A DNA stretch of 32,000 nt from Coprobacillaceae bacterium (lineage in GTDB: Bacteria; Bacillota_I; Bacilli_A; Erysipelotrichales; Coprobacillaceae), in assembly GCA_963675915.1 (NCBI GenBank), contig OY780959.1, positions 1,680,001 through 1,712,000 of the forward strand. Reading direction: 5' to 3'. A model generated the notes under the pieces. The model searched no databases. It saw only the letters and a program-made list of their open reading frames with translations, and was not told the DNA's origin. The position numbers and the translations under genes are program-made. Positions 5,041-29,783 of the stretch are shown in pieces (position 1 is the stretch's first letter; each line of letters starts with the position of its first letter).

Positions 5041-5048
5041 TTATTCAC

Positions 5049-7220: not shown

Positions 7221-7410
7221 AAAACCCTCCGTTTATTTACAGAAAATATATTTTGTTACATAAAATATTCGGCAATATCCCATTTTTAATAAAAATAATT
7301 ACCCATATATATCTATATTACTACAACCGAGTACTAAAAATCAATGATTTATAAATATTAGTAAAGTAAATGCATCTTGAAAAAAGATTGATAAAATCAA
7401 GATATTTTCA

Positions 7411-9024
7411 TTATGTAACGGCTTTGATTTTTTTGTATACATAAAATAATAAAGTGAGTGTCCCCAAACCAAGCAGAATATCCTCATATATGTAACTAAT
7501 ACTATCTGATGTATCCACTATTGCGCTATTATTCTTAATAATGTGTATATTTCTAAATGTTATCCAATCTGTCATAATGTCGTTTTTGTAACACTGACAT
7601 TTTGCCACCAGAACCCCCTTACAATCGCTGACTATAGCTTCAACCTGATAAACCGTCTCATCATAGGAGTAATCCGGATTATCCCCGGCGACTTCATTTA
7701 TCTGAAAATTATAATTTCCGGGCTGACTGAAAGTAAGATCAAAGACCCCTGTCCCAACAGTTGACCCCTCGGCGTTGATGGTTAAATACTTGTTTTTTAT
7801 AGTTTTCGGTTGATTCGTATCAATCTGACTTAGTTGAAATGTAAACGAGATAATTGGATTATTGTCACCACCCACTATCTCCTTTTTAATCTGAATTTGC
7901 GAAGTCACCGGGACCGCTTGATAAATGTTTTCAAACTCAATATTATTTTCAATATCTCCATTCTTGGTGATTGTTATAGTGGGAATTCCATAACTATCAG
8001 TAACCATCTTGACAGTATATTCACTTTGATCATATGTATAGTAGGCTGAGTCATTGGGTTCTTGCCTGATATTCACCGCATATTCGGTATCAGGATACAT
8101 ATCAATCCCAAAACTACAGTTATCAGTGGCGGGGTAATCAATCTCTATTTCGCTGTTGAGCAACTCACCAAAGGGAAGAATGTCGAATATCGCTATTTTG
8201 AACTTTTCTGCCATCGGGTTCAATCCGCTTATCGAAAGCGTCGGATATATCTCTACTCGAGTGATATTACTATTATAAATATTTAAGTAGCGGATATCGG
8301 AGACACTTTCACCATCTTTGCTAATCGTTCCTTGATGAACCTCCAAATCCCCAGACCCATCATATTCGACCTGGTAGGCCACTGTGTATCGGGACTCGTC
8401 AAAACTAAAATTTTGATAATCCTGTTTATTTTGATTCAGGGTAAGGAGATATGATCCGGGTTTGGTTACGTGATAAGCCATGCCGGCGTTAATGATCACT
8501 TCGCCGTTTGAGTTCACATAATTGACAACTTCTACAGTCTCACCCCCAGGAATTGTCAGCAAGGTTTCAATCTCAAAATCAGGATAGTTTCCCTTAGCCA
8601 GAACCGCTCCATTATACAAATCAATCTTGGCATCCGGAAATTCAAGCTGACCGTTCATGACTAGCTTATTGATGATCTTGATTTGATTGCCAACCTGTTC
8701 ATATGTTGTTTGATAACCAGGGACTTGATCCTGCATTACTTCATAATCGTATGCAACCCCCTCACCATATTGTTCAAGTCCGTTAAAGGTTAATATCGGT
8801 TTGGTAACCTGACAGGTCTCAATAACTTCAAAATTGTCCTGACCTGGCCGGTGCCCAAGCAGATGAATATTAACTGGTTTGAATCCACCATAGTCAAAAT
8901 CGATTGTAACAACAATACTATTAGTCCCACTTAAAGCCCGAACATTGTTTGCGTTTAGACAGGTTACAATAACAACTGCAATCCCTGAAACAAGAATCGA
9001 AAATAGAATTTTTTTGATTTTCAC
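7411..9024 (-). CDS. Surface protein with CnaB-type domain and Spy0128/FctA-like pilin isopeptide-linkage domains and a non-LPXTG C-terminal anchor
   Basis: Signal peptide MKIKKILFSILVSGIAVVIV. The CnaB-like segment is HLLGHRPGQDNFEV...YDYEVMQDQVPGYQTTY. There are repeated modules of the type FTFQL...GNYNFQINEVAGDNPDYSYDETVYQVEAIVSD. The C-terminus is LLGLGTLTLLFYVYKKIKAVT. Confidence 0.65.
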   Translation of the reverse strand: MKIKKILFSILVSGIAVVIVTCLNANNVRALSGTNSIVVTIDFDYGGFKPVNIHLLGHRPGQDNFEVIETCQVTKPILTFNGLEQYGEGVAYDYEVMQDQVPGYQTTYEQVGNQIKIINKLVMNGQLEFPDAKIDLYNGAVLAKGNYPDFEIETLLTIPGGETVEVVNYVNSNGEVIINAGMAYHVTKPGSYLLTLNQNKQDYQNFSFDESRYTVAYQVEYDGSGDLEVHQGTISKDGESVSDIRYLNIYNSNITRVEIYPTLSISGLNPMAEKFKIAIFDILPFGELLNSEIEIDYPATDNCSFGIDMYPDTEYAVNIRQEPNDSAYYTYDQSEYTVKMVTDSYGIPTITITKNGDIENNIEFENIYQAVPVTSQIQIKKEIVGGDNNPIISFTFQLSQIDTNQPKTIKNKYLTINAEGSTVGTGVFDLTFSQPGNYNFQINEVAGDNPDYSYDETVYQVEAIVSDCKGVLVAKCQCYKNDIMTDWITFRNIHIIKNNSAIVDTSDSISYIYEDILLGLGTLTLLFYVYKKIKAVT

Positions 9025-9331: not shown

Positions 9332-11193
9332 ATGAAAATATTAATTATTGGCCAAAACAGCGACTTCAACAAACACCTCATCGACGAAATCCGCAAAGAT
9401 AACGATGAGGTTTTTCTTCTAAGCAAAGAAGATTTCAAACCTGGCACCAAACCTAATTTGACATATCGTCATTTCAAATACACCAAATTCCGCAACCTGA
9501 TCATCTCAAGCATCAACCCGATATCATCATTATTGGTGATATCGAGCCGGATGGAACCTACCTTAATGAAATGTCAGCCTTTGTCCAGTCAGCAAATGAA
9601 AATGACATCAGAATTGTTTTTCTTGCCAACGGAGATTTTGACACCGACATGGCAGAAATCATCATCAAACAAGCAAATAATCACCTGATTTTAAAAGCGG
9701 ACAAACTTTACTTTGGAAACGATTTTAAAGCTGAAAATAAAATCATCAGTCCTGTTCATTTTCTCGATGCCATCTATGCACTCAAAGTCACTTTCAATAC
9801 TTTGATCAAAAACAAGACATACACCCTATGTGGTGAAGCAGCCTACAACAGTCTTGATTTGGCTCAGGGTAAAGTTTTGAAACTTCAAGACTGCACTATG
9901 GGGAAAGATTTTAGCAACGATTTTGGTTGGAAAGCAATCCGGGACATATCTGATTACATCAATAATCAACCACAAAAAAAGTCCGCTATCGCGGTTGAAT
10001 CAAGAAAGGAAAACCGTTTGCCGGTTCAATTGGTCGAAAACGCCTCCTTGTTTTCAGTAACGCTGCTGATAAACTACCTTACCAAAGACAGCGCTCTGTT
10101 CGCCCATATCGATTTCACAATCATTTATATTGTCGTGATCTCACTTTTCTACAATATGTATTTCATAATTTCTGCAGTTGTACTCGGAATTTTGATGTAC
10201 CTGGGATTCAATACTGCCAACATCTATAACCTGATGGCGTTGAATTTGTCTCTTAGCACCCTGATTCATATTCTTGAATATCTGGTCACCGGTTTTTTGG
10301 TTGGCTATGTGGTTACCCAACTAGATACGAATAACCGGAGACTAAAAGAAGACAACGAATCTTTGCTTGAGGACATCGAGGAAGTGATCACGATCAATAA
10401 CAAAAACGTGGCCATCAAAGATGAATACAGCAAAAGATTGCTTACCAGTACCAATTCACTGCCCCAGTTATATAAATACGTCAATGATATTGTTTCAAGT
10501 GATCTGGAAATCATCTATTACGAGTTACTGAGCGTAATGCAAAAATTGATCAAAACCGATAATATCCGGATTTATTCTTGCAACAGCCATGAAGGTTTCG
10601 CCCGGCTTGAAGCAACTACCGATACCAAGGCATTGAATTCGCTCAATATCTCCGATCACCAGTTCCTCAGATATGTATTTGAAAACCAGGACATCTATAC
10701 CGGTGATCACTTCAATAACGAGGTCGACATTGTTGCGCCCATCGTCTTCCAAGGCCAGGTTATCGCCCTGATCATGATTGACGAATTGGAATTCTTCGAC
10801 AAGACCCTTTATCAAATCAACCTGATCCGGATGATTTGCAATCTTAGTGCCAACTCCATCGAACAGGCCCGAATCAACCAGCAATCCAACTTCATTGAAG
10901 GCAGCCGGGTGTTCGCATTCGAATATTTCAGCAAACTTTGTCAGGAACATCGCGAAAAAGATGCCCAGTACAACATCACTACCACTCTGGTCAAATGTCA
11001 AAGCAACCGCAGCTTTGTCAGCCTCTATAACGACATTTCCCGGCAGTTGCGCCAAGTTGACACCTTGGGCCTTAACTCCAAAGATCAACTTTGCATTCTC
11101 TTCCATAATGTTTCAACTGCCAATGTCCAGCTGGTTTTGAACCGCCTGAAATTTGATAATGTCGAATTCAAAGTGCTTGAGGGGCTTGATTAA
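9332..11193 (+). pseudogene. pelD: PelD-like c-di-GMP receptor (degenerate SDR/Rossmann N-domain, 4 TM, GAF, degenerate GGDEF), interrupted by a 1-nt frameshift near 9499
   Basis: Two overlapping track ORFs (9332..9688 and 9571..11193) join cleanly. The first frame reads ...KYTKFRNL and ends at 9499; the second reads DHLKHQPDIIIIGDIEPDG from 9499. One extra G would fuse them. Downstream are TM helices (IIYIVVISLFYNMYFIISAVVLGILMYLGF...), a GAF-like block (...VDIVAPIVFQGQVIALIMIDE) and a GGDEF-like C-terminus with RQVD. The position, first in a pelEAFG cluster, matches Gram-positive pelD. Confidence 0.7.
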
Positions 11194-12035
11194 TGGAAAT
11201 TGCAATCATCCTCACTGTCAATCTGATTGTTTCAATCATCTTCTTGGCAGTCAAAAACGAATATTCACATCGGATTCCCCTATTGGGCCTGTTTGTCTTT
11301 ATGCCCATCTGCGGAATCACGATATTTGCCCTGGCCGATTACTTGTACCGTCGGTTCGACCGACCCGAATATGACAAGAAAACCCTGAACTACCGGCTTC
11401 CCCAACAATTTGTTTCCAACCAAGTCAATATGGATGAACAACTCGATATCGTCTCAATCAGCGACCTCAAGAATTTGGCATCATCAAGTGAGAAACGGGA
11501 AGTGGTCCTGAACCAGCTCAAGGAAAATCTTACCCGCAACTATGCCCATATCATCGAAATGCAAAGCGACAGCGACAGCGAGACTGCTCATTACATCGCT
11601 GCTGCCAAGATGGAATCCTATGATCATTTCATTCGCAATCTCGAGACGGCCCGCCAAAAATATTACCATGACAATTCTACTTTGGAAGACTACCTGGACA
11701 AAATCCGGGAAACCATCGACTCCAAACTCCTTAGCTCTGTTGAACAGGAGAAATACCAGAATTTGTATCTGCAGTTATCTCAGGGACGTTTTGACGATAA
11801 CAGTTACAAATATATGTACGATTTGAAAATGTATGATGAACTATTGGAAATTAATGATATCCAGGAAAACGAGACTCTTTTTCTTTTGGTGCTAAAATAC
11901 CATTACAACAATAAAAACAAGATCGAATTCCAACGCCAGCTTAACAAGATGATTGTCAGCCAATTGACTTTTTCATATGATGCCTTGGAAATCATCAGGA
12001 CCTATAAGTCGAGGTATCTCAATGATCCAGCTTAA
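11193..12035 (+). CDS. pelE: PelE-like inner-membrane helical-repeat protein
   Basis: Two N-terminal TM helices (IAIILTVNLIVSIIFLAV, LLGLFVFMPICGITIFALADYL) precede a helical, TPR-like soluble region. TAATG overlap with pelD. The call is mainly positional (pelD-E-A-F-G order). Confidence 0.55.
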   Translation: MEIAIILTVNLIVSIIFLAVKNEYSHRIPLLGLFVFMPICGITIFALADYLYRRFDRPEYDKKTLNYRLPQQFVSNQVNMDEQLDIVSISDLKNLASSSEKREVVLNQLKENLTRNYAHIIEMQSDSDSETAHYIAAAKMESYDHFIRNLETARQKYYHDNSTLEDYLDKIRETIDSKLLSSVEQEKYQNLYLQLSQGRFDDNSYKYMYDLKMYDELLEINDIQENETLFLLVLKYHYNNKNKIEFQRQLNKMIVSQLTFSYDALEIIRTYKSRYLNDPA

Positions 12036-13419
12036 AAGATTCGCGGTTATCCTGGTCATCTGCATCTCGCTTGGGATCATGGCAATCAGCCAGATTCTGC
12101 CTCAAACTCCCAAAGCGGCGCCATCCTCGCCACTTGAATACCGCCACAGCGAAATCGGCTATAACGAATATTTTTATTTGGTAGCAGGCGATGACAATCC
12201 CGTCAAAGATGCCACGATTGAGTTGCTTGAAAGCAAGAAATTCACCTATTCAACCGATCTTAAAGACCTGAATTCCAATTCTGTCTTGATATTTACTTCG
12301 GCCAACATCGCCGACTATCTGGATTTAAAAACTGTTGCCTCATTGCCCAATTATGTCCTGTTTGCGGGTGGCATTGGCGCCAACAGTGAAAACAGCTATT
12401 TGAACAATGTTTTGGGAATAAACCAAAAGCATGAATTGGTAAGACTTGACTATCTGATGTTTAAAGGAACCGAGGTTGAGCTTAGTGACTTTTACAATAC
12501 CGCTTTGATTGATTTACGAGAATCGACCCGGATAATCCTCGATGGTTCCAATCCGATCATCTTCAAAAACAACAATTTCGCTGTCATCAATTCATCCTTG
12601 GCTCTTAGGAGCGGATTCATATTGATGGCACTTGAAAATCTGGTTCCGGATTTGATCTATCCGATTACTGCCACGACCAATATCCTGATTGGGAACATCC
12701 CGGTGAATTTTGCCAGTCTCGATGTAGTTTTGGAATATCGAACCAATGACTTCATCCAGGAAGTGTTTCTGCCTTCCATCAAGGCCCTCGCTCTTTCTAA
12801 CAATCTTAATTACAGCATCGGTCTTTTGAAATACAGCGGAAGTTTCACCGCAACCGATATTCCCCTTTTAAACAGCATTACAGCTGACGATTTCTTGGAT
12901 TTTATTTATGAAGGAGATTTCTCCGGTGATTTTATCGAAGACAATCTAAATTTAAGCACGAACTATATCAACTGCCTCTATGGTAGTATGAACCAGTCCA
13001 AGTATCAGGATATCTCGATCGATTACCATCAATTCCGTGATTTTAGGGACCTTGATATCATCAATGATCAATTGCTCAATCGCGAATTTTTGCTTAGAAT
13101 CGACACGCTTGATTTTATCAGTGATTATGAGAGCAATCTCGACAAGCTAACCAAACTGCTTGGCAGTGTCGAAAGCCCCAGCTCGTCAATCGGTCAATAT
13201 TTGAATATTCGAGAAGCCTACCAAGAAGTTGACTACACATCCAACCATCAGGATGATGAATTGGTGATAAAAGTTGACAACGAAGCCGGTCAGAGTTTCT
13301 TTTTGAAAAGCGCCGCCGCAATATCGGTGACCAACGGAGATTTCCAAAAAGTTCCAGGTGGCTATGTCATCACAGTCAAAGATGTTGAAGTGATTATCAA
13401 GATAGGAGAAGAACGATGA
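12022..13419 (+). CDS. Membrane-anchored extracytoplasmic protein in the PelA-deacetylase (PelA_DA / DUF2194-like) position
   Basis: The preferred start is ATG 12022 (MIQLKRFAVILVICISLGIMAIS, SD GAGG 7 nt upstream) rather than the track start at 11977. The 3' end overlaps the pelF start (ATGA). The assignment is positional; I cannot see the CE4 His-His-Asp motifs. Confidence 0.45.
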   Translation: MIQLKRFAVILVICISLGIMAISQILPQTPKAAPSSPLEYRHSEIGYNEYFYLVAGDDNPVKDATIELLESKKFTYSTDLKDLNSNSVLIFTSANIADYLDLKTVASLPNYVLFAGGIGANSENSYLNNVLGINQKHELVRLDYLMFKGTEVELSDFYNTALIDLRESTRIILDGSNPIIFKNNNFAVINSSLALRSGFILMALENLVPDLIYPITATTNILIGNIPVNFASLDVVLEYRTNDFIQEVFLPSIKALALSNNLNYSIGLLKYSGSFTATDIPLLNSITADDFLDFIYEGDFSGDFIEDNLNLSTNYINCLYGSMNQSKYQDISIDYHQFRDFRDLDIINDQLLNREFLLRIDTLDFISDYESNLDKLTKLLGSVESPSSSIGQYLNIREAYQEVDYTSNHQDDELVIKVDNEAGQSFFLKSAAAISVTNGDFQKVPGGYVITVKDVEVIIKIGEER

Positions 13420-14831
13420 GAATCTGTTTTATATGTGAAGGATCATATCCCTATGTACGAGGCGGGGTATCGTCCTGGATTAATACAATCATCACTGCAA
13501 ATCCCGATTTGGAGTTTGCAATATTTTCGATTGCCACAACCGAAGCGGAAATGTCCGAATATAAATACGAAATCCCGGATAACGTCAAAGAAATCAAGAC
13601 TTTCTACATTTCTTCACAAACCATTTTGGAAAATGTCAAAAAAATCAAATTGACCAGAATGGACCTGGCAATCCTCGATCATTTGCTTTTGGGAAATGGC
13701 GATGATATCGACTGGAAAGCCACTTTGGATTTCATGAAGGAACATCGTGAACATCTAAGCGACATTTTGATGTCGCCCCAATTTTATGAGCTGGTGCTCA
13801 AAACCTACCAGGCCAAATATGGAAATCTCTCATTCAATGATTTCTTATGGAATATGCGCTCAATGTACCATCCTTTCATGAAATTGCTTTCTACCTCGGA
13901 CATCGAAGCTGATATCTATCATCCGGTTTCAACCGGTTATGCCGGGATCCTCGGGGCGATATTCTCTAAAATTCACGAAAAGCCGCTATTGCTTTCCGAA
14001 CATGGAATCTATACCCGGGAACGCGAAGAAGACATTATCAAATCCCAGTGGCTCAAAGGTAACTTCAAGGATATCTGGATTAGCTTTTTCAAACGTTTAT
14101 CCTATATTGCCTATCATCAGGCCGAAAAAGTCACCACTTTGTTCGAAACCAATAAATCCCTGCAAATCGAACTAGGATGCGATGATCATAAAATTGAAGT
14201 GATTCCCAATGGCGTCGATACTGAAACTCTGGGGAACCTCAAACCCCGTTCCGACAAAAGCCGGAAATATTTCAATATTGGGACAGTCTTAAGAATCGTC
14301 CCGATCAAAGACGTAAAGACAATGATCTTCGCATTTCAGATTGCAAAGGCCCAAATCCCCAACGCCCGGCTTTGCATTATGGGAAACTACGATGAAAGTC
14401 CCGGATATTATCAGGAGTGTCTTGATATCGTCGCTCATCTGGGAATCAGTGATATCATCTTCACCGGTCAGGTTGACATCAAGGAACATTTGAATGAGTT
14501 CGACCTGCTGCTGCTCACATCAATATCCGAAGGCCAGCCTCTGGCAGTTATTGAAGGTATGGCGGCCCGCAAGCCTTTTATCTGCACAAACGTCGGTTCC
14601 TGTCAGGAACTGCTGTTAAGCGATGACGGATTCGACCAAGCCGGATTCATTGTTCCAATTATGGGAGTTGAGGAATTGGCCGATAAAATTGTCTACTGCG
14701 CCAACCATCCTGACGAAATCAGGCAAATGGGCTTGAACGGCCAAAACCGGGTGAACCGCTTTTACCGCAGTGAAATATTTTTGAATCGATTTAAAGAAAT
14801 TTACAAGGAGATGGCACCATGGCAGGCATAG
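13416..14831 (+). CDS. pelF: PelF glycosyltransferase (DUF3492 + GT4)
   Basis: The N-terminus MRICFICEGSYPYVRGGVSSWINTII is the hallmark PelF/DUF3492 motif (EG.YPYV.GGVSSW). The C-terminal half has a GT4 Rossmann signature (LLLTSISEGQPLAVIEGMAARKPFICTNVG). Confidence 0.9.
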   Translation: MRICFICEGSYPYVRGGVSSWINTIITANPDLEFAIFSIATTEAEMSEYKYEIPDNVKEIKTFYISSQTILENVKKIKLTRMDLAILDHLLLGNGDDIDWKATLDFMKEHREHLSDILMSPQFYELVLKTYQAKYGNLSFNDFLWNMRSMYHPFMKLLSTSDIEADIYHPVSTGYAGILGAIFSKIHEKPLLLSEHGIYTREREEDIIKSQWLKGNFKDIWISFFKRLSYIAYHQAEKVTTLFETNKSLQIELGCDDHKIEVIPNGVDTETLGNLKPRSDKSRKYFNIGTVLRIVPIKDVKTMIFAFQIAKAQIPNARLCIMGNYDESPGYYQECLDIVAHLGISDIIFTGQVDIKEHLNEFDLLLLTSISEGQPLAVIEGMAARKPFICTNVGSCQELLLSDDGFDQAGFIVPIMGVEELADKIVYCANHPDEIRQMGLNGQNRVNRFYRSEIFLNRFKEIYKEMAPWQA

Positions 14832-16186
14832 GTTTTGAAATCAGGAAAATGTTCGGAAAGAAGACAATTGCTTCAGGCATAAAGGGAACATTCTACGCAA
14901 TTTTTGCAACAATCGGCCCGATAGTAATCTTCATGGCAATGTCGATTATCTTGAGGTTATTTATGGAAATGATGGCGATCTCGTATCCGGACAAGCTGCT
15001 GTTCAATTCCAGCTTCACTTACTGCTTCCTAGTGGCAATTATCACCTCCAGCTTGTTCACCAATACGGTTTCCCGTTACGTTGCCGACAAAATATACGCT
15101 GACCGTGAAGCCGATATCTCTGCGAGCATCATCGGCGTCCTGACTCTTGGAAGCATCATCAGCGGGACTGTGATGGCGATAATGGTCTGGCGGATGAGTC
15201 AAACCGGAGCCTACAGCGCCGCGACACTTCTGGCCTATTATCTAACCGGGGTTCTGGCATGCAATGTCTATAACATCATGACCTATGTTACCGCAATCAA
15301 GGAATATCAAAAGATCTTCAGAGCCTTTCTACTCGGCCTTTCCAGCACATTGATTCTGGTTAATGTCTTTGCCTATCTTAATCTTGAATTCATGTTCAAT
15401 TTCTATCTGGCGATTGCAATCGGTTTTTTCATCATTTTAACAATGGTAATCTATGAATGTGTCAAAGCATTCAACCGTCCCAGTGATAAAATTTTTGAGT
15501 TTATTTCTTATCTCAACAAATACCCGCTTTTGTTTTTTACTTCTTTTATTTTCACCACCGGTTTTTATATTTCCAACATCATCTACTGGAATATCTCCGA
15601 CAATGCGCTTCAAGTGAATATCTTCAGGACATTACCGGCATATGACTTGGCAATGATGTTGGCGATAATGGCCAATCTTCCGGCCCTGGTAATCTTCGTA
15701 GTGAAAATAGAGACCAGTTTTTACGAGAAATATATCGAATATCTTTCCGCTTTGAACAACGATACTTACAAGGTGATTGAGAAAAAGCGCAAAAACATGA
15801 TCCGGGAACTCAGTCTTCAGTTATTTTTCATCTATGATCTGCAGCTGATTTTCTGCCTGTTCCTCCTGATCATTTCATATATCATCTTTCCATATTTGGG
15901 AATTTCCAATCAGACTTTTTTCTATTTCAGAGTCCTGATCATCGCCCTCTATGCCTTGTTTTCAATGCAGTTTACGATGATCATCCAGTACTATTTCGTT
16001 GACTACAAATCAACTTTTATCGCGGCAATAATCTACTTTGCTGTCGAAGTGATCTTATGTCTGATAGTTGGTTACAATTATTATCAATACCCGCTTCTGG
16101 TCGGCAGTTTGGCTGGATGGGCAATCAGTTTCATCACATTGAGAAATTATCTCAAGAAGGTCAATGTGAATTTATTATGCAGGTAG
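14819..16186 (+). CDS. pelG: PelG polytopic membrane protein (PST/MOP-like exporter component)
   Basis: Begins MAGIGFEIRKMF, the conserved PelG N-terminus (MAGIGFELRK). About 12 predicted TM helices. Overlaps the pelF end by 13 nt. Confidence 0.9.
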   Translation: MAGIGFEIRKMFGKKTIASGIKGTFYAIFATIGPIVIFMAMSIILRLFMEMMAISYPDKLLFNSSFTYCFLVAIITSSLFTNTVSRYVADKIYADREADISASIIGVLTLGSIISGTVMAIMVWRMSQTGAYSAATLLAYYLTGVLACNVYNIMTYVTAIKEYQKIFRAFLLGLSSTLILVNVFAYLNLEFMFNFYLAIAIGFFIILTMVIYECVKAFNRPSDKIFEFISYLNKYPLLFFTSFIFTTGFYISNIIYWNISDNALQVNIFRTLPAYDLAMMLAIMANLPALVIFVVKIETSFYEKYIEYLSALNNDTYKVIEKKRKNMIRELSLQLFFIYDLQLIFCLFLLIISYIIFPYLGISNQTFFYFRVLIIALYALFSMQFTMIIQYYFVDYKSTFIAAIIYFAVEVILCLIVGYNYYQYPLLVGSLAGWAISFITLRNYLKKVNVNLLCR

Positions 16187-16194
16187 GTGAATAA

Positions 16195-17898
16195 ATGAAA
16201 AAACTTATTAAAGATTATTTCCCACTGACAACCGTTTTAGTAGCTGCGGTACTTTTTGGATCCCTGTACGTCGCAAATCTTGAAAAAGTCAACGCTCCGG
16301 CCAGGATTGAGAGTGACCCTGCCGATTTTGACCTCGTTACAACCGGAACCATCCATGACAACCAGGCCATCTACGACTATGACTCAACCATTTATGATGT
16401 CTATCTCCGGGTTTTCCCAACCAAAGATGAATCTGGAACTACTCTGGTTTTCGATGACTTTCAAAAGCACGAGGCTTTGGATCATGATTATAACCCGGTC
16501 TTGAACTGCAATATTCAGATTCTTGATGAAGATCAAAGCCTGGATCCGATGATTGTGACTTCAATGACAAACGCCACAATCAGAGTAAGAGGTAACTCAG
16601 CCAGAGGTGAAGCAATCAAATCATATAAAATAAAAATGGATGATGATACCAACGGATTCAAAGGACAATACAGCCTCAATATCAACAAACATATGGATGA
16701 CATAACCCGAGTCACCCAAAAATTTTGCACCGACCTTTTGGCATTGACCAATACCTTGATATCCTACCGTACTAATTTCATGCGGGTTTATATTCTTGAT
16801 GATGCCAAAAACTCCAATGAATATGAATATTATGGTCTCTTTACCAATTCAGAACAAGCCAATAAGACATACTTGGGGATCCATAACCTGGGATCATCAT
16901 CGAATCTTTACAAAGCGGAAGATTTTTCATTCAATCAGGATGACCGGCTAAAATCAACCGCAAATCCCCTTTATAAAAAGAAAGATTTCGAAGAAGTGCT
17001 TTCGATCATGGAAGGTGATTCCAATCACGAACCGCTCCTCGCTATGATCGATGCCATCAACGACAACTCACTTGGCATGGATGACCTGTTTGGCCAATAT
17101 TTGAATCAGGACAACTATCTTGATTTTCTGGCTTTCAACATCCTGGTTGGTGGCGATGATATCCTTAACCATAACTTCTTGATTTATAACCCAAATAACA
17201 GTACCACTTTCTATCTTATCCCTTATGACTTCGACAAGAATATGCAGGTTGAGGATGCCAGCTACATTCCCTATTCGCTGATGGGCGGCCAAAAATACAA
17301 CATGTCACCTTTGCACCATAAGTTTTTGACCAGCGAAAATGGCTTTGCCCAATTGAAACAGCGAGTTTTGGAACTAAAGGACAAATTCCTCACCAGTGAT
17401 ATCCAAGTACTGCTGGACTCATATCAGGAAGTTCTAAGCAAAACCATTTACTTAAGCCCCGACCTGTCCAGTCTGAAGCAAACACCAAGCCAGACTTTGG
17501 CCTATCTCCAGTCTTATCCGGAATTGATCGAGGATAATTATACCAGGTTCCTCAATGCATTTGACTATCCGGCACCGATTTTCACAGCCACACCGGTATT
17601 CAATCAAGACCGGACCCTTCATCTGGCCTGGGATAACTCTTATTCATACCAAGGTCTCGATCTGCATTATCAGGTCCGGATCTACAACGACTATGCGAAG
17701 TCAACTATTATTTACCAAAACGACAGTGTGATTGATACCGCCACCGATACCGATGTGACTTTTGGCCCCGGAACTTATTATCTCGAGGTCAACAGTGTCG
17801 ACAGTGCCGGTCACGTTCAGCCCTCATTGGAACATTTTGAATTCAAATCGACCGAATTCGTCTATGTATCCGGTCTAATGGAGTTTACCCTGCAATGA
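16195..17898 (+). CDS. cotH: CotH-family atypical protein kinase with N-terminal membrane anchor and C-terminal FN3-like domain
   Basis: N-terminal TM/signal anchor LTTVLVAAVLFGSLYVA. CotH-type blocks IRVRGNSARGEAIKSYKIK, YLDFLAFNILVGGDDILNHNFLIYNP and FYLIPYDFDKNM. The start is 8 nt after the pelG stop, with SD AGGTAGGTGA. Confidence 0.8.
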   Translation: MKKLIKDYFPLTTVLVAAVLFGSLYVANLEKVNAPARIESDPADFDLVTTGTIHDNQAIYDYDSTIYDVYLRVFPTKDESGTTLVFDDFQKHEALDHDYNPVLNCNIQILDEDQSLDPMIVTSMTNATIRVRGNSARGEAIKSYKIKMDDDTNGFKGQYSLNINKHMDDITRVTQKFCTDLLALTNTLISYRTNFMRVYILDDAKNSNEYEYYGLFTNSEQANKTYLGIHNLGSSSNLYKAEDFSFNQDDRLKSTANPLYKKKDFEEVLSIMEGDSNHEPLLAMIDAINDNSLGMDDLFGQYLNQDNYLDFLAFNILVGGDDILNHNFLIYNPNNSTTFYLIPYDFDKNMQVEDASYIPYSLMGGQKYNMSPLHHKFLTSENGFAQLKQRVLELKDKFLTSDIQVLLDSYQEVLSKTIYLSPDLSSLKQTPSQTLAYLQSYPELIEDNYTRFLNAFDYPAPIFTATPVFNQDRTLHLAWDNSYSYQGLDLHYQVRIYNDYAKSTIIYQNDSVIDTATDTDVTFGPGTYYLEVNSVDSAGHVQPSLEHFEFKSTEFVYVSGLMEFTLQ

Positions 17899-18605
17899 GA
17901 TTCGAAGGTAATAATCTCAGAAACGAACTTAAATATTATATCAGTTATAATGAGTACCTGGTTTTGAAGTCGCGCCTGAAACCTTTGATAAAGGCCGACC
18001 CCAATATGCCAGATGAGCAAGGGTACCTGATTTCTTCGGTCTATTTTGACGATCTTTGCAGCAGTGCCTACCGCCAGAAGATTCGCGGCGACCGCTTCAG
18101 AAACAAGTTTCGAATCAGAACATATCAGCGCAGTGACGCAAAAATTAATTTGGAGATGAAATCAAAGTTCCATGACTTCATCGCAAAACAGTCCGCTCCT
18201 CTTTCCCGCAAAGAATTTGAGAGCATTTTGGAAGGTCGGTATGAATTCCTTATCAATAGAAATGAAGAAGTATGCCAACGGCTTTTGCTGCACAATCGGC
18301 TTCACTTGCTCAAACCCAAAGTGGTGGTGGAATACCTCCGGGAAGCTTATGTATTCAAAGCAGGAAATGTCCGGATAACATTCGACAAAAATCTGGCCGC
18401 CAACGACACGACCATGAATATCTTCAGTGATCAGTATTCAAGCCACGGAGTCATGCCCGATGACCAGATGATTCTTGAAGTTAAATATGATGATTTTCTG
18501 CCGAATATGTTGAGTGTGATATTAAAAGATACAATCAGTACCCGCGGCGCTATCAGCAAATACGTTATGTGCATCGATGATAAAAGGAGTAAATACAGAT
18601 GGTAA
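17895..18605 (+). CDS. VTC-domain (CYTH/triphosphate-tunnel, polyphosphate-polymerase-like) protein
   Basis: NELKYYISYNEY..., SSVYFDD, FRIRTY, INLEMKSK, VVVEYLREAY, RITFD and ILEVKYDDFLP together give the alternating charged beta-strand pattern of bacterial VTC-domain proteins. ATGA overlap with cotH. Confidence 0.75.
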   Translation: MRFEGNNLRNELKYYISYNEYLVLKSRLKPLIKADPNMPDEQGYLISSVYFDDLCSSAYRQKIRGDRFRNKFRIRTYQRSDAKINLEMKSKFHDFIAKQSAPLSRKEFESILEGRYEFLINRNEEVCQRLLLHNRLHLLKPKVVVEYLREAYVFKAGNVRITFDKNLAANDTTMNIFSDQYSSHGVMPDDQMILEVKYDDFLPNMLSVILKDTISTRGAISKYVMCIDDKRSKYRW

Positions 18606-19264
18606 CATTCAGTGATATTTTTAAAAACAGTTTCCTCGAGTCCAGCGGGAACCTGACAACCGCAAGTTTTGCAATGAGCATGCTTGCCTGTTATATGTGC
18701 GCGATGATCATTTATTTCATCTATCGCAACTTTTACAAGGGCGTTATTTACAACAACAATCTCAATATCCTGTTGGTTCTGGTTTCCCTGATAACCTGCT
18801 TTATCGTGATGGTAATTTCCAGCAACATCGCTTTGTCACTCGGGATGGTTGGGGCGCTCTCGATTGTCCGCTTCAGGACAGCAATCAAGGACCCGCTTGA
18901 TGTCGGTTTTCTTTTCTTCTCAATCAGTGTCGGAATCGTCACCGGCGCCGGGCTCTATCTCTTTGCCCTGGCCGGAACTTTGATGATTGCACTTGCGTAT
19001 ATCATCTTGATCAATATCAAAACCAAAAAACGTATCTATATGCTGTTGGTTTCTTATGAAAAGGAAGTTGAAGCCCAACTTGAAACGCATTTGCAACCGC
19101 TAAACAAGATATTGAAAAACAAGACTTCAACGCGAGAGTCGACCGAAGCTACCTATGAAATCAAAATTTATAATGAAAATACCAGTTTCCTCGATGAGAT
19201 ATCCGCTTTGCCGGGAGTGCATTCCGCCATGGTGGTTGATTTCACCGGAGATTATATGGAGTAA
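18599..19264 (+). CDS. DUF4956-family membrane protein
   Basis: Four TM helices and the family motif LSLGMVGALSIVRFRTAIKDPLDVGFLFFSISVGIVTGAG. Overlaps the VTC gene by 7 nt. SD AGGAGT lies 8 nt upstream. Confidence 0.75.
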   Translation: MVTFSDIFKNSFLESSGNLTTASFAMSMLACYMCAMIIYFIYRNFYKGVIYNNNLNILLVLVSLITCFIVMVISSNIALSLGMVGALSIVRFRTAIKDPLDVGFLFFSISVGIVTGAGLYLFALAGTLMIALAYIILINIKTKKRIYMLLVSYEKEVEAQLETHLQPLNKILKNKTSTRESTEATYEIKIYNENTSFLDEISALPGVHSAMVVDFTGDYME

Positions 19265-19303
19265 AAAAATCCGTTATTGAAAATAATCAATAACGGATTT
19301 TTA
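19263..19303. terminator. Bidirectional intrinsic terminator shared by the pel-cotH-VTC operon and the convergent Rieske gene
   Basis: Perfect 12-bp stem ATCCGTTATTGA (19269-19280) / TCAATAACGGAT (19287-19298) with loop AAATAA. An A6 run precedes it and a T-run follows. Confidence 0.85.
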
Positions 19304-21168: not shown

Positions 21169-22125
21169 TTAATTTACTTCATTATAGAACATTTCAATCA
21201 AAATGTCATCCATTTTTTGCTCATCTATGTAAAATTCTTCATATGTGTCACCCATTTGTTTTTCGCCTGGCACAAACGCGGTTTTCGTGAAGTCAACATC
21301 ATAATCCGACAAGTCGTCAATCTGTTCGCCCGTTAGATCGGTCATGACATAATCATCGAGCATCGTCGAAAAAGTATCATAGAGATTATCAAGATTCTTG
21401 GACTTGACTGTATTGACCAAAGCACTGAGGTACTGGACTTGACGTTCCATTCGTTCTGCATTGCCGCCAATGCCCTCAATAACCCGCCCCCGAACATATC
21501 TTTCGGCCTGATGGGCGGTCAGGTTCAGGGTTTCCCCTGCAACAAACTCCGGTTCAATGTCGGTGTAGTCTTCTGGAATGGTAAGAGTGACTCCGCCAAC
21601 CGCATCATTGATAATTCCAATTGACTCGATGTTGAGATTCAAGTAGCCATCGATTCTCAGGTCATTTAACATTGCGCTGACAGTATTGACCATCGCCCAA
21701 CAGCTCTGAGTACCACCCTTGGCAACTGAATATTGAAGACAAAGTTGGGCAAACGAAGTACCAATTACATTGCCATGGATGTCATACAGATCGATATCCA
21801 CCATGCTGTTTCTGGAAATCTGCAGCATTTTGGCTTTTTTGGTACTTTTATCCAACGAAAGCAAGATGATGCTGTCAGCCTGATTGGTGTAATTTCCGTA
21901 TTCTTCTTTTTGGATCAGATCATTGCTGTCGATTCCGATAAAAAGAATATTGGTCAGATCCGTGTTATAACGGTAGCGGCTACCGTTGTACTCAACAATA
22001 TTTGCCTGTGATTGGCCATTGTCGATAATCATTGGAGTCGTTTCGCGGGTTAAAGCATAAATCCCTCCACCCACTACTGCAACAAGCACAACAGCGATAA
22101 TAATATTTTTCCAAGACTTAATCAT
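21169..22125 (-). CDS. LytR-CpsA-Psr (LCP) family glycopolymer transferase
   Basis: An N-terminal TM helix followed by LCP motifs: NILFIGIDSND, DSIILLSLDKSTKKAKMLQISRNSMVDI and ...ERYVRGR. Confidence 0.85.
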   Translation of the reverse strand: MIKSWKNIIIAVVLVAVVGGGIYALTRETTPMIIDNGQSQANIVEYNGSRYRYNTDLTNILFIGIDSNDLIQKEEYGNYTNQADSIILLSLDKSTKKAKMLQISRNSMVDIDLYDIHGNVIGTSFAQLCLQYSVAKGGTQSCWAMVNTVSAMLNDLRIDGYLNLNIESIGIINDAVGGVTLTIPEDYTDIEPEFVAGETLNLTAHQAERYVRGRVIEGIGGNAERMERQVQYLSALVNTVKSKNLDNLYDTFSTMLDDYVMTDLTGEQIDDLSDYDVDFTKTAFVPGEKQMGDTYEEFYIDEQKMDDILIEMFYNEVN

Positions 22126-22127
22126 TA

Positions 22128-22862
22128 TTAGCGTCCTAGAAGATTTCTTTTGGTTTGCAAGTCATTGTCATGTAACGGAATGACCGCCAAAGTATTGACA
22201 TCGAGATATTTTTCAATATCGTCTGGTGTTTTCAAGTTGTTGTTCAACAAGAATCTTCCGACAATGAATCCGGCTGAAAGCAAGAGTCCCACTGCCGCCC
22301 CGATAACTGTGTTTCGGGACTTGCTTGGACTTACTGGGACATAATTGGCCTCAGCTCTTTCAACTGTTGTCGGCTCATCAGACTGCATTATATAAGCCAT
22401 TTGAGATGCGGTTTCTTCGGCCACTGCATTGGTCACCCACGATGCGATTTCCGGATCAGTATAGGTAGCGCTGATAGTCAAAATCCGGGTGTTTGCAGCA
22501 TTGCTTACACTAATCATGCCTATGATTTCACTACGAGTCAATTCAATATTATACGTGCGGTCAATCTTATCGATTGCTCCGTCAATAACCGGTTTTGAGG
22601 TCGCGATGATGGCGAAGTCTTCTGTCAATTCCGATCCCAGCTGCAAATCAGCCAATGATGTAACGCTTGTTGTTTTGGTCAGGATATATAGCATTGAATC
22701 CGATTTGTATTCCGGACTGACAAAGAAAATCGTATATCCCAATGCCAGTACTCCGACTAGAACAGTGGAGATTGCAATGAGAATCCAATTTCTCAACAAG
22801 ACAAAAAACAATTCCTGTAAATCTATTTCCGTCTCATCTAAATATTCTTCATATTCATTCAT
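22128..22862 (-). CDS. cpsC: Wzz/CpsC-type chain-length / BY-kinase transmembrane modulator
   Basis: Two-TM topology (ILIAISTVLVGVLALGYTIFFV and VIGAAVGLLLSAGFIVGRFLL) with the YKSDSMLYI motif typical of CapA/CpsC. The stop lies 2 nt before the LCP start. Confidence 0.8.
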   Translation of the reverse strand: MNEYEEYLDETEIDLQELFFVLLRNWILIAISTVLVGVLALGYTIFFVSPEYKSDSMLYILTKTTSVTSLADLQLGSELTEDFAIIATSKPVIDGAIDKIDRTYNIELTRSEIIGMISVSNAANTRILTISATYTDPEIASWVTNAVAEETASQMAYIMQSDEPTTVERAEANYVPVSPSKSRNTVIGAAVGLLLSAGFIVGRFLLNNNLKTPDDIEKYLDVNTLAVIPLHDNDLQTKRNLLGR

Positions 22863-22876
22863 TTCCCATCTTCCCC

Positions 22877-23572
22877 CTAGTCATTATTCTTGTATTCATA
22901 TTCGTAGTATTTATAGTATTTTTCACCACCATAATATCTAGCTTCATGAACATTGAATTTGCTTAATACTACCCCCAAGAAATTAGGGTTTGCCGTTGTA
23001 AGCTGTTTGATTGTCGCTTTGACTCTTTTTGAAGTTGCCGTATTCGAAGCAACTACCAGTAAAGAGGCATCGCTGACTTTAGCGATGATAGCCGCATCGA
23101 TTACCGCTCCAAGTGGTGGGGTATCGATGATAATGTAATCAAACTTGGTTTTCAGTTTGTCCAACATATCTTTGAAAATTTCTTTTGAAAGAAGTTCGGT
23201 CGGATTAGGTGGGAACTTACCAGTCGTAATTACATATAGGTTTTCGATGTCGGTTCCGGAGATGATGTCATTGATTGTTGCCATTCCTGACAAATAATGT
23301 GATAATCCCATGACAGCCGAACGACTATGACTGTTGATCAATAATGATTTACGTAAATCAGCATCGATAAGCAATACTCTTTTCCCACTTTGGGCAAAGG
23401 CATTGGCCAAATTCAATGATGTCGAAGACTTTCCGTCTTCGGGATTGGAACTGGTGACAGCAATCACTCTGTTATCCAAACCGGTAAATTCGATATTAGT
23501 TCTTAATGTACGATATGCTTCACGGATATGGAAATCATCCAATATACGGAATTTCAATTTTAAATTAAACAC
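22877..23572 (-). CDS. cpsD: CpsD/CapB-type bacterial tyrosine (BY) kinase
   Basis: Walker A VTSSNPEDGKSS, Walker A' LLIDADLRK and Walker B YIIIDTPP. C-terminal tyrosine cluster YYGGEKYYKYYEYEYKNND. Confidence 0.9.
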   Translation of the reverse strand: MFNLKLKFRILDDFHIREAYRTLRTNIEFTGLDNRVIAVTSSNPEDGKSSTSLNLANAFAQSGKRVLLIDADLRKSLLINSHSRSAVMGLSHYLSGMATINDIISGTDIENLYVITTGKFPPNPTELLSKEIFKDMLDKLKTKFDYIIIDTPPLGAVIDAAIIAKVSDASLLVVASNTATSKRVKATIKQLTTANPNFLGVVLSKFNVHEARYYGGEKYYKYYEYEYKNND

Positions 23573-24284
23573 CTAATCTTTCTCCTCTTATTACTCTCTC
23601 TTGATTTTCCCTGAAAAGCTTGTTTGCGGTATCCAAGTCGAATTTCTTGGCTACAACCGAATATGCAGCTTTCAAATTTATCTTTCTCTTTGAATCATTG
23701 TGGCCATCGCTGGCAACAAAATGAATCAGATTGTTCTTGATCAGATTAAAAGCAAATCGCTTTTTCATAAAACCATAATCACCCAGAATGATACTCGTAT
23801 TCATCTGGCAATAGGCTCCGATTTTTTCCAGAACGTATATCTTTTTGACATCACTGATGAACTGATACCGCTCCACGTGGGCAATAATCGGGATATAACC
23901 ACTGCTAGTAAGGTCGTGAATTGCCGCTTTCAACTCTTTGAATTGAATGTAAGGCGGGAATTCAACCAGAACATAATCGGTGTTGTTGATTGTGGGAAAT
24001 TTTCCATCTTCCAACATTTCAAGGGCCAATGATGAATACATTATTTCTCCGCCCAGATAGAATTTAATCTCAAGTCCGGATTCTTCGATGATATCCTGGA
24101 TTGCCCGATAACCTTCCACAACCCTTCGAAGATAGTCCTTGCTGGCATCATGACGGAAATGAGGTGTCGCAACGATACAATTTATTCCTTGCTTAGCTGA
24201 CTGCTGAATCATTTTTAGTGTGACTGTCTTATCTCTAGCGCCGTCATCGACTTGCGGCAGGATATGGCAGTGAATATCAATCAT
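23565..24284 (-). CDS. cpsB: CpsB/CapC-type PHP-family tyrosine-protein phosphatase
   Basis: The N-terminus MIDIHCHILPQVDDGA is the diagnostic CpsB motif. Later motifs are ATPHF, AHVERY and ASDGH. Strong SD AAGGAGGGG upstream. Confidence 0.9.
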   Translation of the reverse strand: MIDIHCHILPQVDDGARDKTVTLKMIQQSAKQGINCIVATPHFRHDASKDYLRRVVEGYRAIQDIIEESGLEIKFYLGGEIMYSSLALEMLEDGKFPTINNTDYVLVEFPPYIQFKELKAAIHDLTSSGYIPIIAHVERYQFISDVKKIYVLEKIGAYCQMNTSIILGDYGFMKKRFAFNLIKNNLIHFVASDGHNDSKRKINLKAAYSVVAKKFDLDTANKLFRENQERVIRGERLGV

Positions 24285-24572: not shown

Positions 24573-24655
24573 ATCGAGTAGGAGGAAATAAATAAAATTT
24601 TATTTCCGACCTCTCACACCACCGTACGTGCCGTCCGGCATACGGCGGTTTAAAT
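24573..24655 (-). ncRNA. Group II intron domains V and VI (3' ribozyme segment)
   Basis: Domain V is as described above. As I recall it, it is close to the Oceanobacillus iheyensis IIC intron domain V. Domain VI is GAGAGG-UC-GGAAAUAAA-loop-UUUAUUUCC-U-CCU-A-CUC with a bulged adenosine. Confidence 0.7.
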
Positions 24656-25492
24656 CTATACTAAAATATGTTTTAACTGATATTGGTCTAGCAGTGATGC
24701 TAGACCATTTCTTTTGAGTACTTTGTTTGTTATTTTGGTTCGCAGAAACGTGCTTGCACAGCGGGCATATGATTTCCTGGAATTTGACCATGATTCATAT
24801 TGCCATCTTTGGGCCCCTAGTTTTCTCAACTGTTTTCTACGGTTCTTGATGGTTTTCCATTTCTTCCACAGGTACATTCGGATTCTAAATCTAATCCAGC
24901 CATCCAGCCTTGCACATTTGGATTTGAAATTTCCGATTCGGTAGTAATTGATCCACCCGACAATAAGTTGCCTTATTTTCATTCGGCGAAATTCCCATGA
25001 TACTGACCAACTTCTATTAGTCAGTTCTCTGAGCTTATCTTTCAAGATAGCTATTGATTTAGCATGTGGTTTGGCTTTCCATGACTGGCTGAAGTTGTCA
25101 TAATAGAATCCAAATCCCAAGTATTTGATATCATTTGGTTTGGATACTTTGCTTTTGGTCATGTTGACCTTGAGCCCCAACTTCTTTTCAATGAACTTTC
25201 GCACATTCTCCATAACTCTATCTGCAGCTTTACTGCTACCGACAAATATCATGCAGTCATCAGCGTACCTAGTAAAATGCAACCCTCTAGCCTCCAATTC
25301 TTTGTCGAGTTCGTTAAGGACGATATTACTCAACAATGGACTCAACGGACCTCCTTGGCTTGATCCGATTATTGACTCTTTGTATTCTCCATCAATGCTT
25401 ATTCCACTTACCAGGAATTTTCTTATCAGTGATACAATTTCACCATTCTTGACATCTTTCATGATTAAGGTAATCAATTTATCGTGGTTGAT
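24656..25492 (-). pseudogene. Group II intron reverse transcriptase/maturase, C-terminal fragment (RT domains 3-7 + X/maturase)
   Basis: ...INHDKLITLIMKDV..., SQGGPLSPLLSNIVLNELD, RYADDCMIFVGS (YADD box) and an X-domain RQLIVGWINYY. The first 12 codons of the track ORF (MVRWHQIKWLAT) are read out of the transposon end. Confidence 0.9.
25487..25492. repeat. Left copy of the 6-bp target-site duplication GTTGAT
   Basis: An identical hexamer abuts the other transposon end at 28807-28812. Removing one copy and the element restores ...FFDNINHDKL.... Confidence 0.8.
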
Positions 25493-25516
25493 TGTAGCTA
25501 GCCATTTTATTTGATG
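25493..25516. repeat. Left terminal inverted repeat TGTAGCTAGCCATTTTATTTGATG
   Basis: Matches the reverse complement of 28783-28806 at 22 of 24 positions. Confidence 0.85.
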
Positions 25517-25700
25517 CCATCTAACCATAATCTAGTCATAATAAATAAAGGTCAATTCCAAATAATTTGATGAATTTTTCTTCAAATTGCTTGAGATTGA
25601 CCTTTTGCTTTGTTATTTTATTGGTAATAAATCTAGAGAAAGAAAAAATGAGAGACGCCACCACCAAGCAGTTTCTCTCATTTGCCATATAGACAAGAAT

Positions 25701-29373: not shown

Positions 29374-29783
29374 GCCTAATTTTAATAACTGATAGATTCA
29401 TTCAGTCCTTCACTCCATGGCCATTACAGCCACTTCTTCGCTACTACGACGTCTGCTGACTTCTTGCGATTCGTTGTTACTAGGATTGCTCCCTCGCAAG
29501 ATCTCCCGGGATAAGGTCATATCTCTTTCACCCCATATATCCGCCACATTTACATGTAATAGTTGTATTCCGCAACCTCTTATGACTTCGCGTTGTTTGG
29601 CACGCTCGTCCCCATTACCTGCCTGATATGTGATTTGTGTGCCTCGGACCAGGGTTTTGCCTCCATCTTCTTTCAGATTCCACCTCACGATGGACACCCT
29701 TGATATTGGCTAGTGGTTGGCAGTTGCGACGTCACCCCCACAGTGGACTTTCACCACCTAGATATATGCCATGCCCGGCATAC
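29374..29783 (-). ncRNA. Group II intron 5' ribozyme segment (domains I-III / IVa)
   Basis: Starts GUAUGCCGGGCAUGG. It contains AAGGGUGUCC...GGUGGAAUCUGAAAGAAG, which parallels the IIC intron domain I sequence as I recall it. The track ORFs here (29410..29697 and 29417..29626) are not credible as CDS. Confidence 0.65.

Follow-up and report, generated by a model that had tools for sequence, protein, structure and literature searches.

A Vtc4-like tunnel enzyme and its constant DUF4956 membrane partner at the end of a bacterial pel operon: a candidate split polyphosphate synthase/translocase

The last two genes of a pel-type operon in the genome of a Coprobacillaceae bacterium encode a triphosphate-tunnel protein of the VTC family and a small membrane protein of the DUF4956 family, and homologues of these two genes constitute an obligate two-gene unit across the phylum Bacillota, from Lachnospiraceae to Paenibacillus and beyond. 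The stretch of DNA analysed, referred to below as the window, is 32,000 nucleotides (nt) long (contig OY780959.1, positions 1,680,001 to 1,712,000, GenBank assembly GCA_963675915.1). The VTC gene occupies window positions 17895..18605 and the DUF4956 gene positions 18599..19264, both on the forward (+) strand, and the encoded proteins comprise 236 and 221 amino acids (aa), respectively. An earlier note on this DNA, made from the letters and their open reading frames (ORFs), had located both genes and named their families correctly, as is evident from Pfam matches far beyond chance, and had envisaged the pair as a split analogue of the eukaryotic VTC polyphosphate (polyP) synthase/translocase. 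The present evidence lends weight to two parts of that idea, the polymerase and the coupling, and not to the third, the translocase: the enzyme is indeed Vtc4-like and the pairing holds, whereas the partner is distantly MgtC-like rather than a counterpart of the channel subunit Vtc1.

Our preferred reading, in which we infer the enzyme activity, the contact between the proteins and the translocation alike, is a tentative one, possible rather than probable. The VTC enzyme would dock on the DUF4956 protein at the inner face of the membrane and polymerise phosphate from ATP, and the resulting polyP would be passed to, or through, a DUF4956 oligomer to the cell surface. Outside, where there is no ATP, the polyanion would serve an extracytoplasmic protein with the CotH kinase fold; alternatively, it may associate with the Pel polysaccharide, a cationic polymer in those species for which a characterisation exists. 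We rank this reading first because it alone explains as a set the enzyme, the membrane protein and the kinase fold outside, as well as an anchored phosphatase in one clade and the conserved exit path of the tunnel. An extension of it, which we consider quite improbable, would turn the three genes into a trans-membrane phosphoryl supply line, with polyP exported via DUF4956, CotH using polyP instead of ATP as the donor for phosphorylation of Pel, the wall or surface proteins, and the phosphatase, found in Paenibacillus, trimming or recycling the polymer.

An obligate gene pair and its CotH neighbour

The conservation of the pair was assessed from both sides. The VTC-side set consists of 80 loci on contigs representing one genome per species, and the DUF4956-side set of 80 metagenome loci, 76 of which are evaluable, the other four having less than 300 nt upstream. 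A DUF4956 gene lies directly 3' of the VTC gene in 78 of the 80 genome loci, and both exceptions concern short contigs, in one of which the VTC gene ends approximately 250 nt from the contig edge. Conversely, a VTC gene lies directly 5' of the DUF4956 gene in all evaluable metagenome loci (76/76). The junction of the two genes is overlapping in 27 of 79 cases, with 19 of these overlaps having the form ATGA; in the window the overlap measures 7 nt (ATGGTAA, the genes being in different frames), and the sequence AAAGGAG is found 10 nt 5' of the DUF4956 start. The tight coupling of overlapping genes that the earlier note had pointed out is thus borne out by the window and by both sets of loci. 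Because the linkage is conserved and start/stop overlaps are frequent, chance adjacency is excluded: an explanation that treats the two genes as unrelated, fortuitous neighbours would have to accommodate the same order in genomes from Lachnospiraceae to Paenibacillus and beyond, and its probability is vanishingly small.

The third gene of the window cassette, cotH (16195..17898, +), encodes a 567-aa CotH kinase-fold protein (Pfam CotH, E 1.3e-36) whose N-terminus carries a signal sequence or membrane anchor. It shares 4 nt with the VTC gene (ATGA), which contain the stop codon of the one and the start codon of the other. The one hydrophobic segment of the protein, at residues 8-32, follows three lysines (K2, K3 and K6), and together they predict an extracytoplasmic domain. 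In alignment, the catalytic aspartates of Bacillus CotH, D228 and D251, are matched by D322 and D345. A CotH gene adjoins the pair in 64 of 80 loci, almost always coding for a protein with one N-terminal hydrophobic segment. This count was obtained with an iterated hidden Markov model (HMM) and is higher than that of an initial model, which had failed to recognise large, divergent LTD-CotH proteins; Pfam confirmed CotH in one of the loci concerned (L033). Single ORFs of about 1030 aa encode both PelG and CotH in Paenibacillus, Sporosarcina, Psychrobacillus and Rummeliibacillus (L041:6889-9978, L038, L046-L049, L053, L061), the one in L041 matching Pfam PelG over residues 1-454 and CotH over residues 593-902. 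Between the PelG and CotH parts lie a linker rich in K/R, a hydrophobic stretch and an LxxC motif resembling a lipobox (LLTAC, ILVGC, LLSAC, LISAC), features that would place the CotH domain outside the membrane. Either such an ORF is a true fusion, or its CotH part is made separately as a lipoprotein from an internal start in the same frame.

The large LTD-CotH proteins, of about 1050 aa, combine CotH with three lamin-tail domains and a chitobiase/Fn3-associated domain and are encoded 5' of VTC-DUF4956 in loci from Christensenellaceae-type metagenome-assembled genomes (L030, L033, L037, L040 and L079; for instance L033:6754-9918). Two CotH paralogues occur in several other loci, either in tandem 5' of VTC or flanking the pair (L020, L021, L022, L077; L026, L034, L078).

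A whole pel operon is present in 30 of the 80 genome loci, and the trio stands without pel genes in at least 20 loci whose flanks extend over the full 10 kb (non-pel trios were recorded in L014, L018, L030, L033, L037, L040, L045, L050, L052, L055-L058, L065, L066, L068, L069, L071, L072, L074, L079 and L080). Among them are 14 Paenibacillus-type loci with the order VTC-DUF4956-CotH, as well as the loci with the ~1050-aa LTD-CotH. The neighbours of the non-pel trios are mostly unrelated housekeeping genes, with the exception of a purple-acid-phosphatase-like gene (Pur_ac_phosph_N plus Metallophos) that is divergently oriented to VTC-DUF4956-CotH in 12 Paenibacillus-type loci. The one copy of this gene that was examined (L069:8489-9862, -) has an N-terminal membrane anchor, which hints at phosphate chemistry taking place outside the membrane.

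A Vtc4-like tunnel enzyme

The VTC protein of the window is a soluble, basic, cytoplasmic, Vtc4-like tunnel enzyme. It consists of a single tunnel domain, has no hydrophobic segment and has an isoelectric point of 9.3; Pfam VTC (PF09359, E 2.3e-38) covers residues 9-227 with 132.5 bits against a cut-off of 23, and it is this family, not CYTH, to which Pfam assigns the protein. The six strand motifs on which the tunnel fold had been proposed are all present (YFDD at residue 50, RIRTY at 73, LEMK at 86, VEYLRE at 145, RITFD at 160 and LEVKYD at 194). An AF2 model (predicted local distance difference test, pLDDT, 89.5; predicted template-modelling score 0.86) displays the eight-stranded tunnel fold followed by a C-terminal helix. 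When this model was compared with the PDB by Foldseek, the catalytic domain of yeast Vtc4, in crystal and cryo-electron-microscopy structures, gave the best matches (E 5.6e-13 to 4e-11, template-modelling score 0.69-0.72); all of the top 10 matches are chains of the yeast VTC complex, Vtc2 (3G3O) comes at rank 11, and hydrolases or cyclases of the triphosphate tunnel metalloenzyme (TTM) class appear from rank 14 onwards, at E 3e-8 or worse. Below Vtc4 the structural order is Vtc2/3, then YgiF, CyaB-like proteins, SaTTM and thiamine triphosphatase. At the sequence level, a profile of 30 diverse bacterial homologues matches Vtc4 with E 4e-8; the window protein alone, searched against PDB sequences, reaches Vtc4 at E 0.019 only and over its N-terminal half, and a narrow profile yields no match.

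The profile alignment equates a series of window residues with published triphosphate- and Mn2+-binding residues of Vtc4 and with the basic residues round its tunnel exit. The ligand positions are K13 (Vtc4 K200), R73 and R75 (R264 and R266), K89 (K281), Y147 and R149 (Y359 and R361) and E195 (E426), with E87 corresponding to Vtc4 E279; those of the exit path are R9 (R196), K98 (K294), R160 (R373) and K197 (K428). All of these residues are invariant across the 30 bacterial homologues. A further ligand, Vtc4 K458 (together with S457), is the only one that differs in the inactive Vtc2/Vtc3 and hence separates the active Vtc4 from them. Its counterpart in the window enzyme is probably K222, judging from the position in the fold: K222 is invariant, and S221-K222 opens the C-terminal helix (222-235) at a place fitting Vtc4 S457-K458. 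As a 55-aa query the C-terminal segment has no PDB match, hhalign with a fungal fragment ended at residue 167, and the profile alignments stop short of the segment. A MAFFT alignment with fungal fragments pairs AISKY with AVPKF, that is, K222 with K455 instead of K458.

Taken together, these residue correspondences and the modelled fold make polyP polymerase activity of the VTC protein somewhat the likelier case. An alternative, unlikely in our view and yet not negligible, is that the tunnel enzyme is no polymerase and converts tri- or polyphosphate, a nucleoside triphosphate or a nucleotide signal, forming with DUF4956 a sensor/effector for CotH or Pel. Three of the four positions of the acidic patch of hydrolase TTMs could be mapped, all but that of AtTTM3 E90, and two of these three (those of E2 and E171) are basic here (R9 and K197), as they are in Vtc4 (R196 and K428), which speaks against the non-polymerase alternative; so do the invariance of the mapped basic residues at the tunnel exit, the structural precedence of Vtc4 over all hydrolase and cyclase TTMs, and the Pfam assignment. 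The third mapped position, the metal-site-2 Glu-4 of hydrolase TTMs, favours this alternative, for it is occupied by an invariant glutamate, E11, where Vtc4 has T198. It is also favoured by the ambiguity of the alignment of K222 with K458 and by the case of AtTTM3, from which Martinez et al. showed that a Vtc4-like tunnel centre is no guarantee of polymerase activity.

The membrane partner and the destination of the product

The DUF4956 protein of the window (Pfam PF16316, E 3.7e-14, 53.2 bits against a cut-off of 30.6) had been credited with four transmembrane helices. The AF2 model and the charges of the loops favour a different architecture, with five membrane helices predicted at residues 21-45, 53-72, 75-94, 99-116 and 120-139 and a C-terminal ACT-like domain with a beta-alpha-beta-beta-alpha-beta unit modelled at residues 147-214. 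Because five helices bring all of the K/R-rich loops (46-52, RFRTAIKDP at 91-99 and IKTKKRI at 140-146) to one side, the protein is predicted to be oriented N-out/C-in, with the RFRTAIKDP motif, an R-x-R-x3-K loop, and the ACT-like domain at the cytoplasmic face. The conservation that had been ascribed to this motif is confirmed by 79 homologues, R91 being conserved in 100%, R93 and K97 in 98% and P99 in at least 97% of them. The wider core of the family, comprising N76, L79-R91 (LSLGMVGALSIVR), R93, K97, P99, D101, F106, G112 and G116, is at least 96% conserved in the same number of sequences. DUF4956 is a large family: a search of representatives yielded 6008 clusters at E <=1e-3, against 3293 when the limit was E <=1e-10. 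Nearly all of the best 150 of the 6008 representatives have a length of 218-233 aa. None of the longer representatives that were checked carries a VTC domain, one of them being a citrate-synthase chimera.

The affinities of the family lie elsewhere than with the VTC complex. Pfam MgtC (PF02308) matches the window protein with E 0.017 and 15.9 bits, below the threshold of 31.4, and weak matches to the same model, likewise below threshold (best E 5.8e-5), were obtained for 25 of 25 aligned DUF4956 members over residues 60-140; NCBIfam MgtC models score 20-22 bits, their cut-offs exceeding 200. The best PDB match of the C-terminal domain is the C-terminal domain of Mycobacterium tuberculosis MgtC (2LQJ), followed by ACT and NikR domains. 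Searches of the PDB by sequence and by fold gave no match between DUF4956 and the transmembrane chains of the VTC complex, and no Vtc1-type family match was found.

Experimental data on a homologous trio come from Streptococcus intermedius (mBio 2025, PMC12345266), where SIR_1594 is a secreted CotH-FN3 protein, SIR_1593 contains a polyP polymerase domain and SIR_1592 consists of an MgtC-type transmembrane domain and an ACT domain. Deletion of SIR_1592 (DUF4956) increased Pel and decreased aggregation, deletion of SIR_1594 (CotH) decreased Pel, and no change was reported for deletion of SIR_1593 (VTC) (PMC12345266). The authors suggested an undefined link to phosphate metabolism (PMC12345266).

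These data, along with several of our own observations, weigh against export of polyP by the pair. The lack of a reported phenotype of the VTC deletion and the opposite effects of the DUF4956 and CotH deletions on Pel fit a simple linear pathway poorly, and the former, in the sense that no aggregation phenotype was seen, agrees with the non-polymerase alternative, as do E11 and the ambiguous equivalence of K222 with K458, which count against the export reading on the side of the enzyme. On the side of the partner, DUF4956 is by its profile matches and modelled fold distantly MgtC-like and unrelated to Vtc1-type channel subunits, and MgtC is described as a regulator acting on other membrane proteins, ATP synthase and PhoR, not as a transporter (PMC12345266). 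The predicted helices contain no Lys or Arg, two conserved aspartates (D98 and D101) stand next to the basic loop, and the model itself is of moderate confidence (pLDDT 70.5). No pore is identifiable in the monomer model, which is compatible with an oligomeric pore. A VTC-DUF4956 fusion was found neither among the best 150 of the 6008 representatives nor in the 160 loci. Finally, five loci from Oscillospiraceae and related uncultured Clostridia (L027, L054, L059, L063 and L075) harbour the pair without CotH within 10 kb.

Much of this evidence would suit a different destination of the product. The closest rival of the export reading, and about as possible, is that polyP is made by a membrane-tethered enzyme and stays in the cytoplasm, with DUF4956 acting as an MgtC-like anchor or regulator through ligand binding by its ACT-like domain, and that Pel is tuned via ATP, phosphate or polyP. 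The likeness of DUF4956 to MgtC in both the transmembrane part (PF02308) and the ACT-like domain (2LQJ) supports this explanation, as does the described action of MgtC on ATP synthase and PhoR, and thereby on phosphate metabolism (PMC12345266); the rise of Pel upon deletion of DUF4956 in S. intermedius is what would be expected of a negative regulator, and the absence of basic pore-lining residues from the helices points in the same direction. What cytoplasmic polyP leaves unexplained is the extracytoplasmic CotH beside the pair in 64 of 80 loci, the membrane-anchored phosphatase of Paenibacillus and the linkage of the pair in some 20 or more loci lacking pel. The conserved basic residues at the tunnel exit fit either location of the product and do not discriminate between the two.

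The pel operon, related systems and significance

The locus in the window is the terminal cotH, VTC and DUF4956 cassette of a Gram-positive-type pel operon. This context had escaped the earlier note: the pair is no isolated unit, the VTC and DUF4956 genes forming the 3' end of a same-strand, tightly packed pel-cotH operon of about 10 kb, and the gene set has been published before (PMC7112168, PMC12345266). The operon starts with a PelD-like gene for a 540-aa protein (9571..11193, +), identified by synteny and tblastn. This protein is a short form without the N-terminal epimerase domain: in a tblastn search with the PelD-like protein of the related locus L001 (689 aa, epimerase plus GAF_3-like), the alignment with the window starts only at query residue 244, and the Pfam matches of the window gene, to DUF4118 and GAF, are weak. 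PelD-like homologues head the equivalent operon in 30 related loci. The following genes at the PelE position (280 aa, 11193..12035, +) and at the PelA (deacetylase) position (480 aa, 11977..13419, +) gave no match in the family searches; their names are inferred from their conserved place, between the PelD-like and PelA-like genes in 31 loci for the former and 5' of pelF in 28 loci for the latter, and from the published order pelDEA(DA)FG (PMC7112168). The glycosyltransferase gene pelF (GT4, 13416..14831, +) is identified by NCBIfam PelF (NF038011, E 1.1e-108, 364 bits against a cut-off of 100) and by Pfam DUF3492 plus Glycos_transf_1, and pelG, encoding a polytopic membrane protein (14819..16186, +), by a full-length match to Pfam PelG (PF16933, E 4.1e-89). 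Directly 3' of the DUF4956 stop lies a terminator-like hairpin (19265..19302, not assigned to a strand), recognised by a consensus scan only and comprising a 16-bp stem, a 6-nt loop and a T-rich flank; a convergent Rieske oxygenase gene lies on its other side, so that the hairpin is common to both. The operon stops at this hairpin, and no gene for a DUF4832 glycoside hydrolase follows DUF4956 in the window.

Several other features of the window deserve a brief record. A small ORF (9332-9688) without a family match overlaps the start region of the PelD-like gene. Of the surface proteins encoded at 3691-9024 (-), one is pilin-like, of the Cna_B/FctA isopeptide kind, another is a glucosaminidase that bears a type I dockerin, and a third is a cadherin-like beta-sandwich protein; the dockerin is suggestive of a cellulosome-type host among the Clostridia. 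A second polysaccharide locus adjoins the pel operon at 21169-24284 (-), with genes for LytR-CpsA-Psr, a Wzz chain-length determinant, a CpsD-like tyrosine-kinase ATPase and a CpsB phosphatase. Still within the cps-like region, a group II intron (24573-24650 and 24656-25528, -) is represented by an Rfam Intron_gpII match abutting a truncated-looking ORF for a reverse transcriptase/maturase (RVT_1 plus GIIM), and the 5' part of a second group II intron (models D1-D4) occupies 29405-29694 (-). As for the surroundings of the pair in other genomes, the five loci devoid of CotH share a conserved divergent cluster of genes for proteins of ~117, ~98 and ~530 aa next to the pair; the ~530-aa product matches the YidC-type 60KD_IMP family, and our guess from size and order is that the two smaller genes are rnpA and jag.

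The published record documents the gene set without assigning it a function. Whitfield et al. (2020) described how, in streptococci and clostridia, the genes pelDEA(DA)FG are directly adjoined by accessory genes, namely cotH, a 'poly-phosphate polymerase' gene, DUF4956 and DUF4832, and noted that the epimerase domain of PelD correlates with these accessory genes (PMC7112168). Ten years earlier, a VTC protein, a membrane protein of ~226 aa mis-annotated as tubulin/FtsZ and CotH were among the gene products of the NELoc-2 locus of Clostridium perfringens (2010), in which the pair of VTC and membrane-protein genes is duplicated around a resolvase (PMC2879425). The window locus belongs to the published class of pel accessory cassettes: the order cotH, VTC, DUF4956 directly after pelF-pelG is the same, and so is the domain set of a secreted CotH, a polyP-polymerase domain and an MgtC-like transmembrane plus ACT protein. 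It deviates from the class in two respects, the missing DUF4832 gene and the missing epimerase domain of PelD; the related locus L016, unlike the window, carries DUF4874 and DUF4832. According to the S. intermedius study, the synteny of the trio was not found outside pel loci (PMC12345266), whereas in our sample the trio is also common elsewhere. A search of the literature turned up no study characterising a bacterial VTC protein or proposing a synthase/translocase, and no paper joining DUF4956 with VTC, some mentions of DUF4956 occurring in expression tables only. The mechanistic reading is thus apparently unpublished, and what is new here is the mapping of residues onto Vtc4, the strict two-way pairing, the linkage and topology of CotH, the MgtC-likeness of DUF4956 and the existence of trios outside pel loci.

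How closely the pair resembles known systems depends on the component considered. The catalytic tunnel domain is homologous to that of the eukaryotic VTC complex, with the same triphosphate/Mn2+ ligands and basic exit path, and in both cases the enzyme is tied, here genetically, to a small polytopic membrane protein with conserved basic residues at what is here a predicted cytoplasmic face. The differences are substantial. The 236-aa protein lacks both the SPX domain of eukaryotic VTC and a transmembrane segment of its own, and has E11 in place of Vtc4 T198; the eukaryotic channel is a pentamer of three-helix Vtc1/DUF202-type subunits with K/R rings, whereas the partner in the window has five predicted helices, MgtC-likeness and an ACT-like domain; and the eukaryotic complex targets the vacuole lumen, whereas the bacterial pair would target the cell exterior. 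In terms of membership, therefore, only the catalytic domain belongs to the eukaryotic VTC family, the resemblance otherwise being one of working principle. With MgtC/SapB proteins the DUF4956 protein shares the architecture of a hydrophobic N-terminal domain and a C-terminal ACT-like domain, as well as weak similarity over the last three helices; it differs from them in scoring below all curated thresholds, in having a core of its own (LSLGMVGALSIVRxRxxxKxPxD) and in being always encoded with VTC. TTM hydrolases and cyclases (Escherichia coli YgiF, AtTTM3, CyaB-type proteins, SaTTM) have the same tunnel fold, and one acidic-patch glutamate of theirs is kept as E11, but they rank below Vtc4 structurally and R9 and K197 of the window enzyme are basic. 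Finally, PPK1 and PPK2 would have in common with the pair what it presumably produces, namely polyP from a nucleoside triphosphate. The folds of PPK1 and PPK2 are unrelated to that of VTC-type enzymes, to our knowledge neither has been described as coupled to a dedicated membrane partner, and no similarity of the window pair to them turned up in any search made.

Bacterial polyP synthesis is, in the textbook view, the work of PPK1 and PPK2, and polymerases of the VTC type count as eukaryotic enzymes whose action always goes together with membrane transit. The wide occurrence in bacteria of a Vtc4-like enzyme with a constant membrane partner therefore bears on the existence of a PPK-independent polyP synthase in bacteria, and the trio bears on a route of polyP to the cell surface or the biofilm matrix, on the phosphoryl donor of an extracytoplasmic kinase, and on the unexplained accessory genes of streptococcal and clostridial Pel loci as well as the ancestral role of the MgtC family. 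Should the enzyme prove to be a hydrolase, or DUF4956 no more than a regulator, little would be left of the finding but an annotation of a published gene set. If the supply-line reading were true, the trio would represent a bacterial counterpart of VTC with a non-homologous membrane partner, and an answer to the absence of ATP outside the cell.

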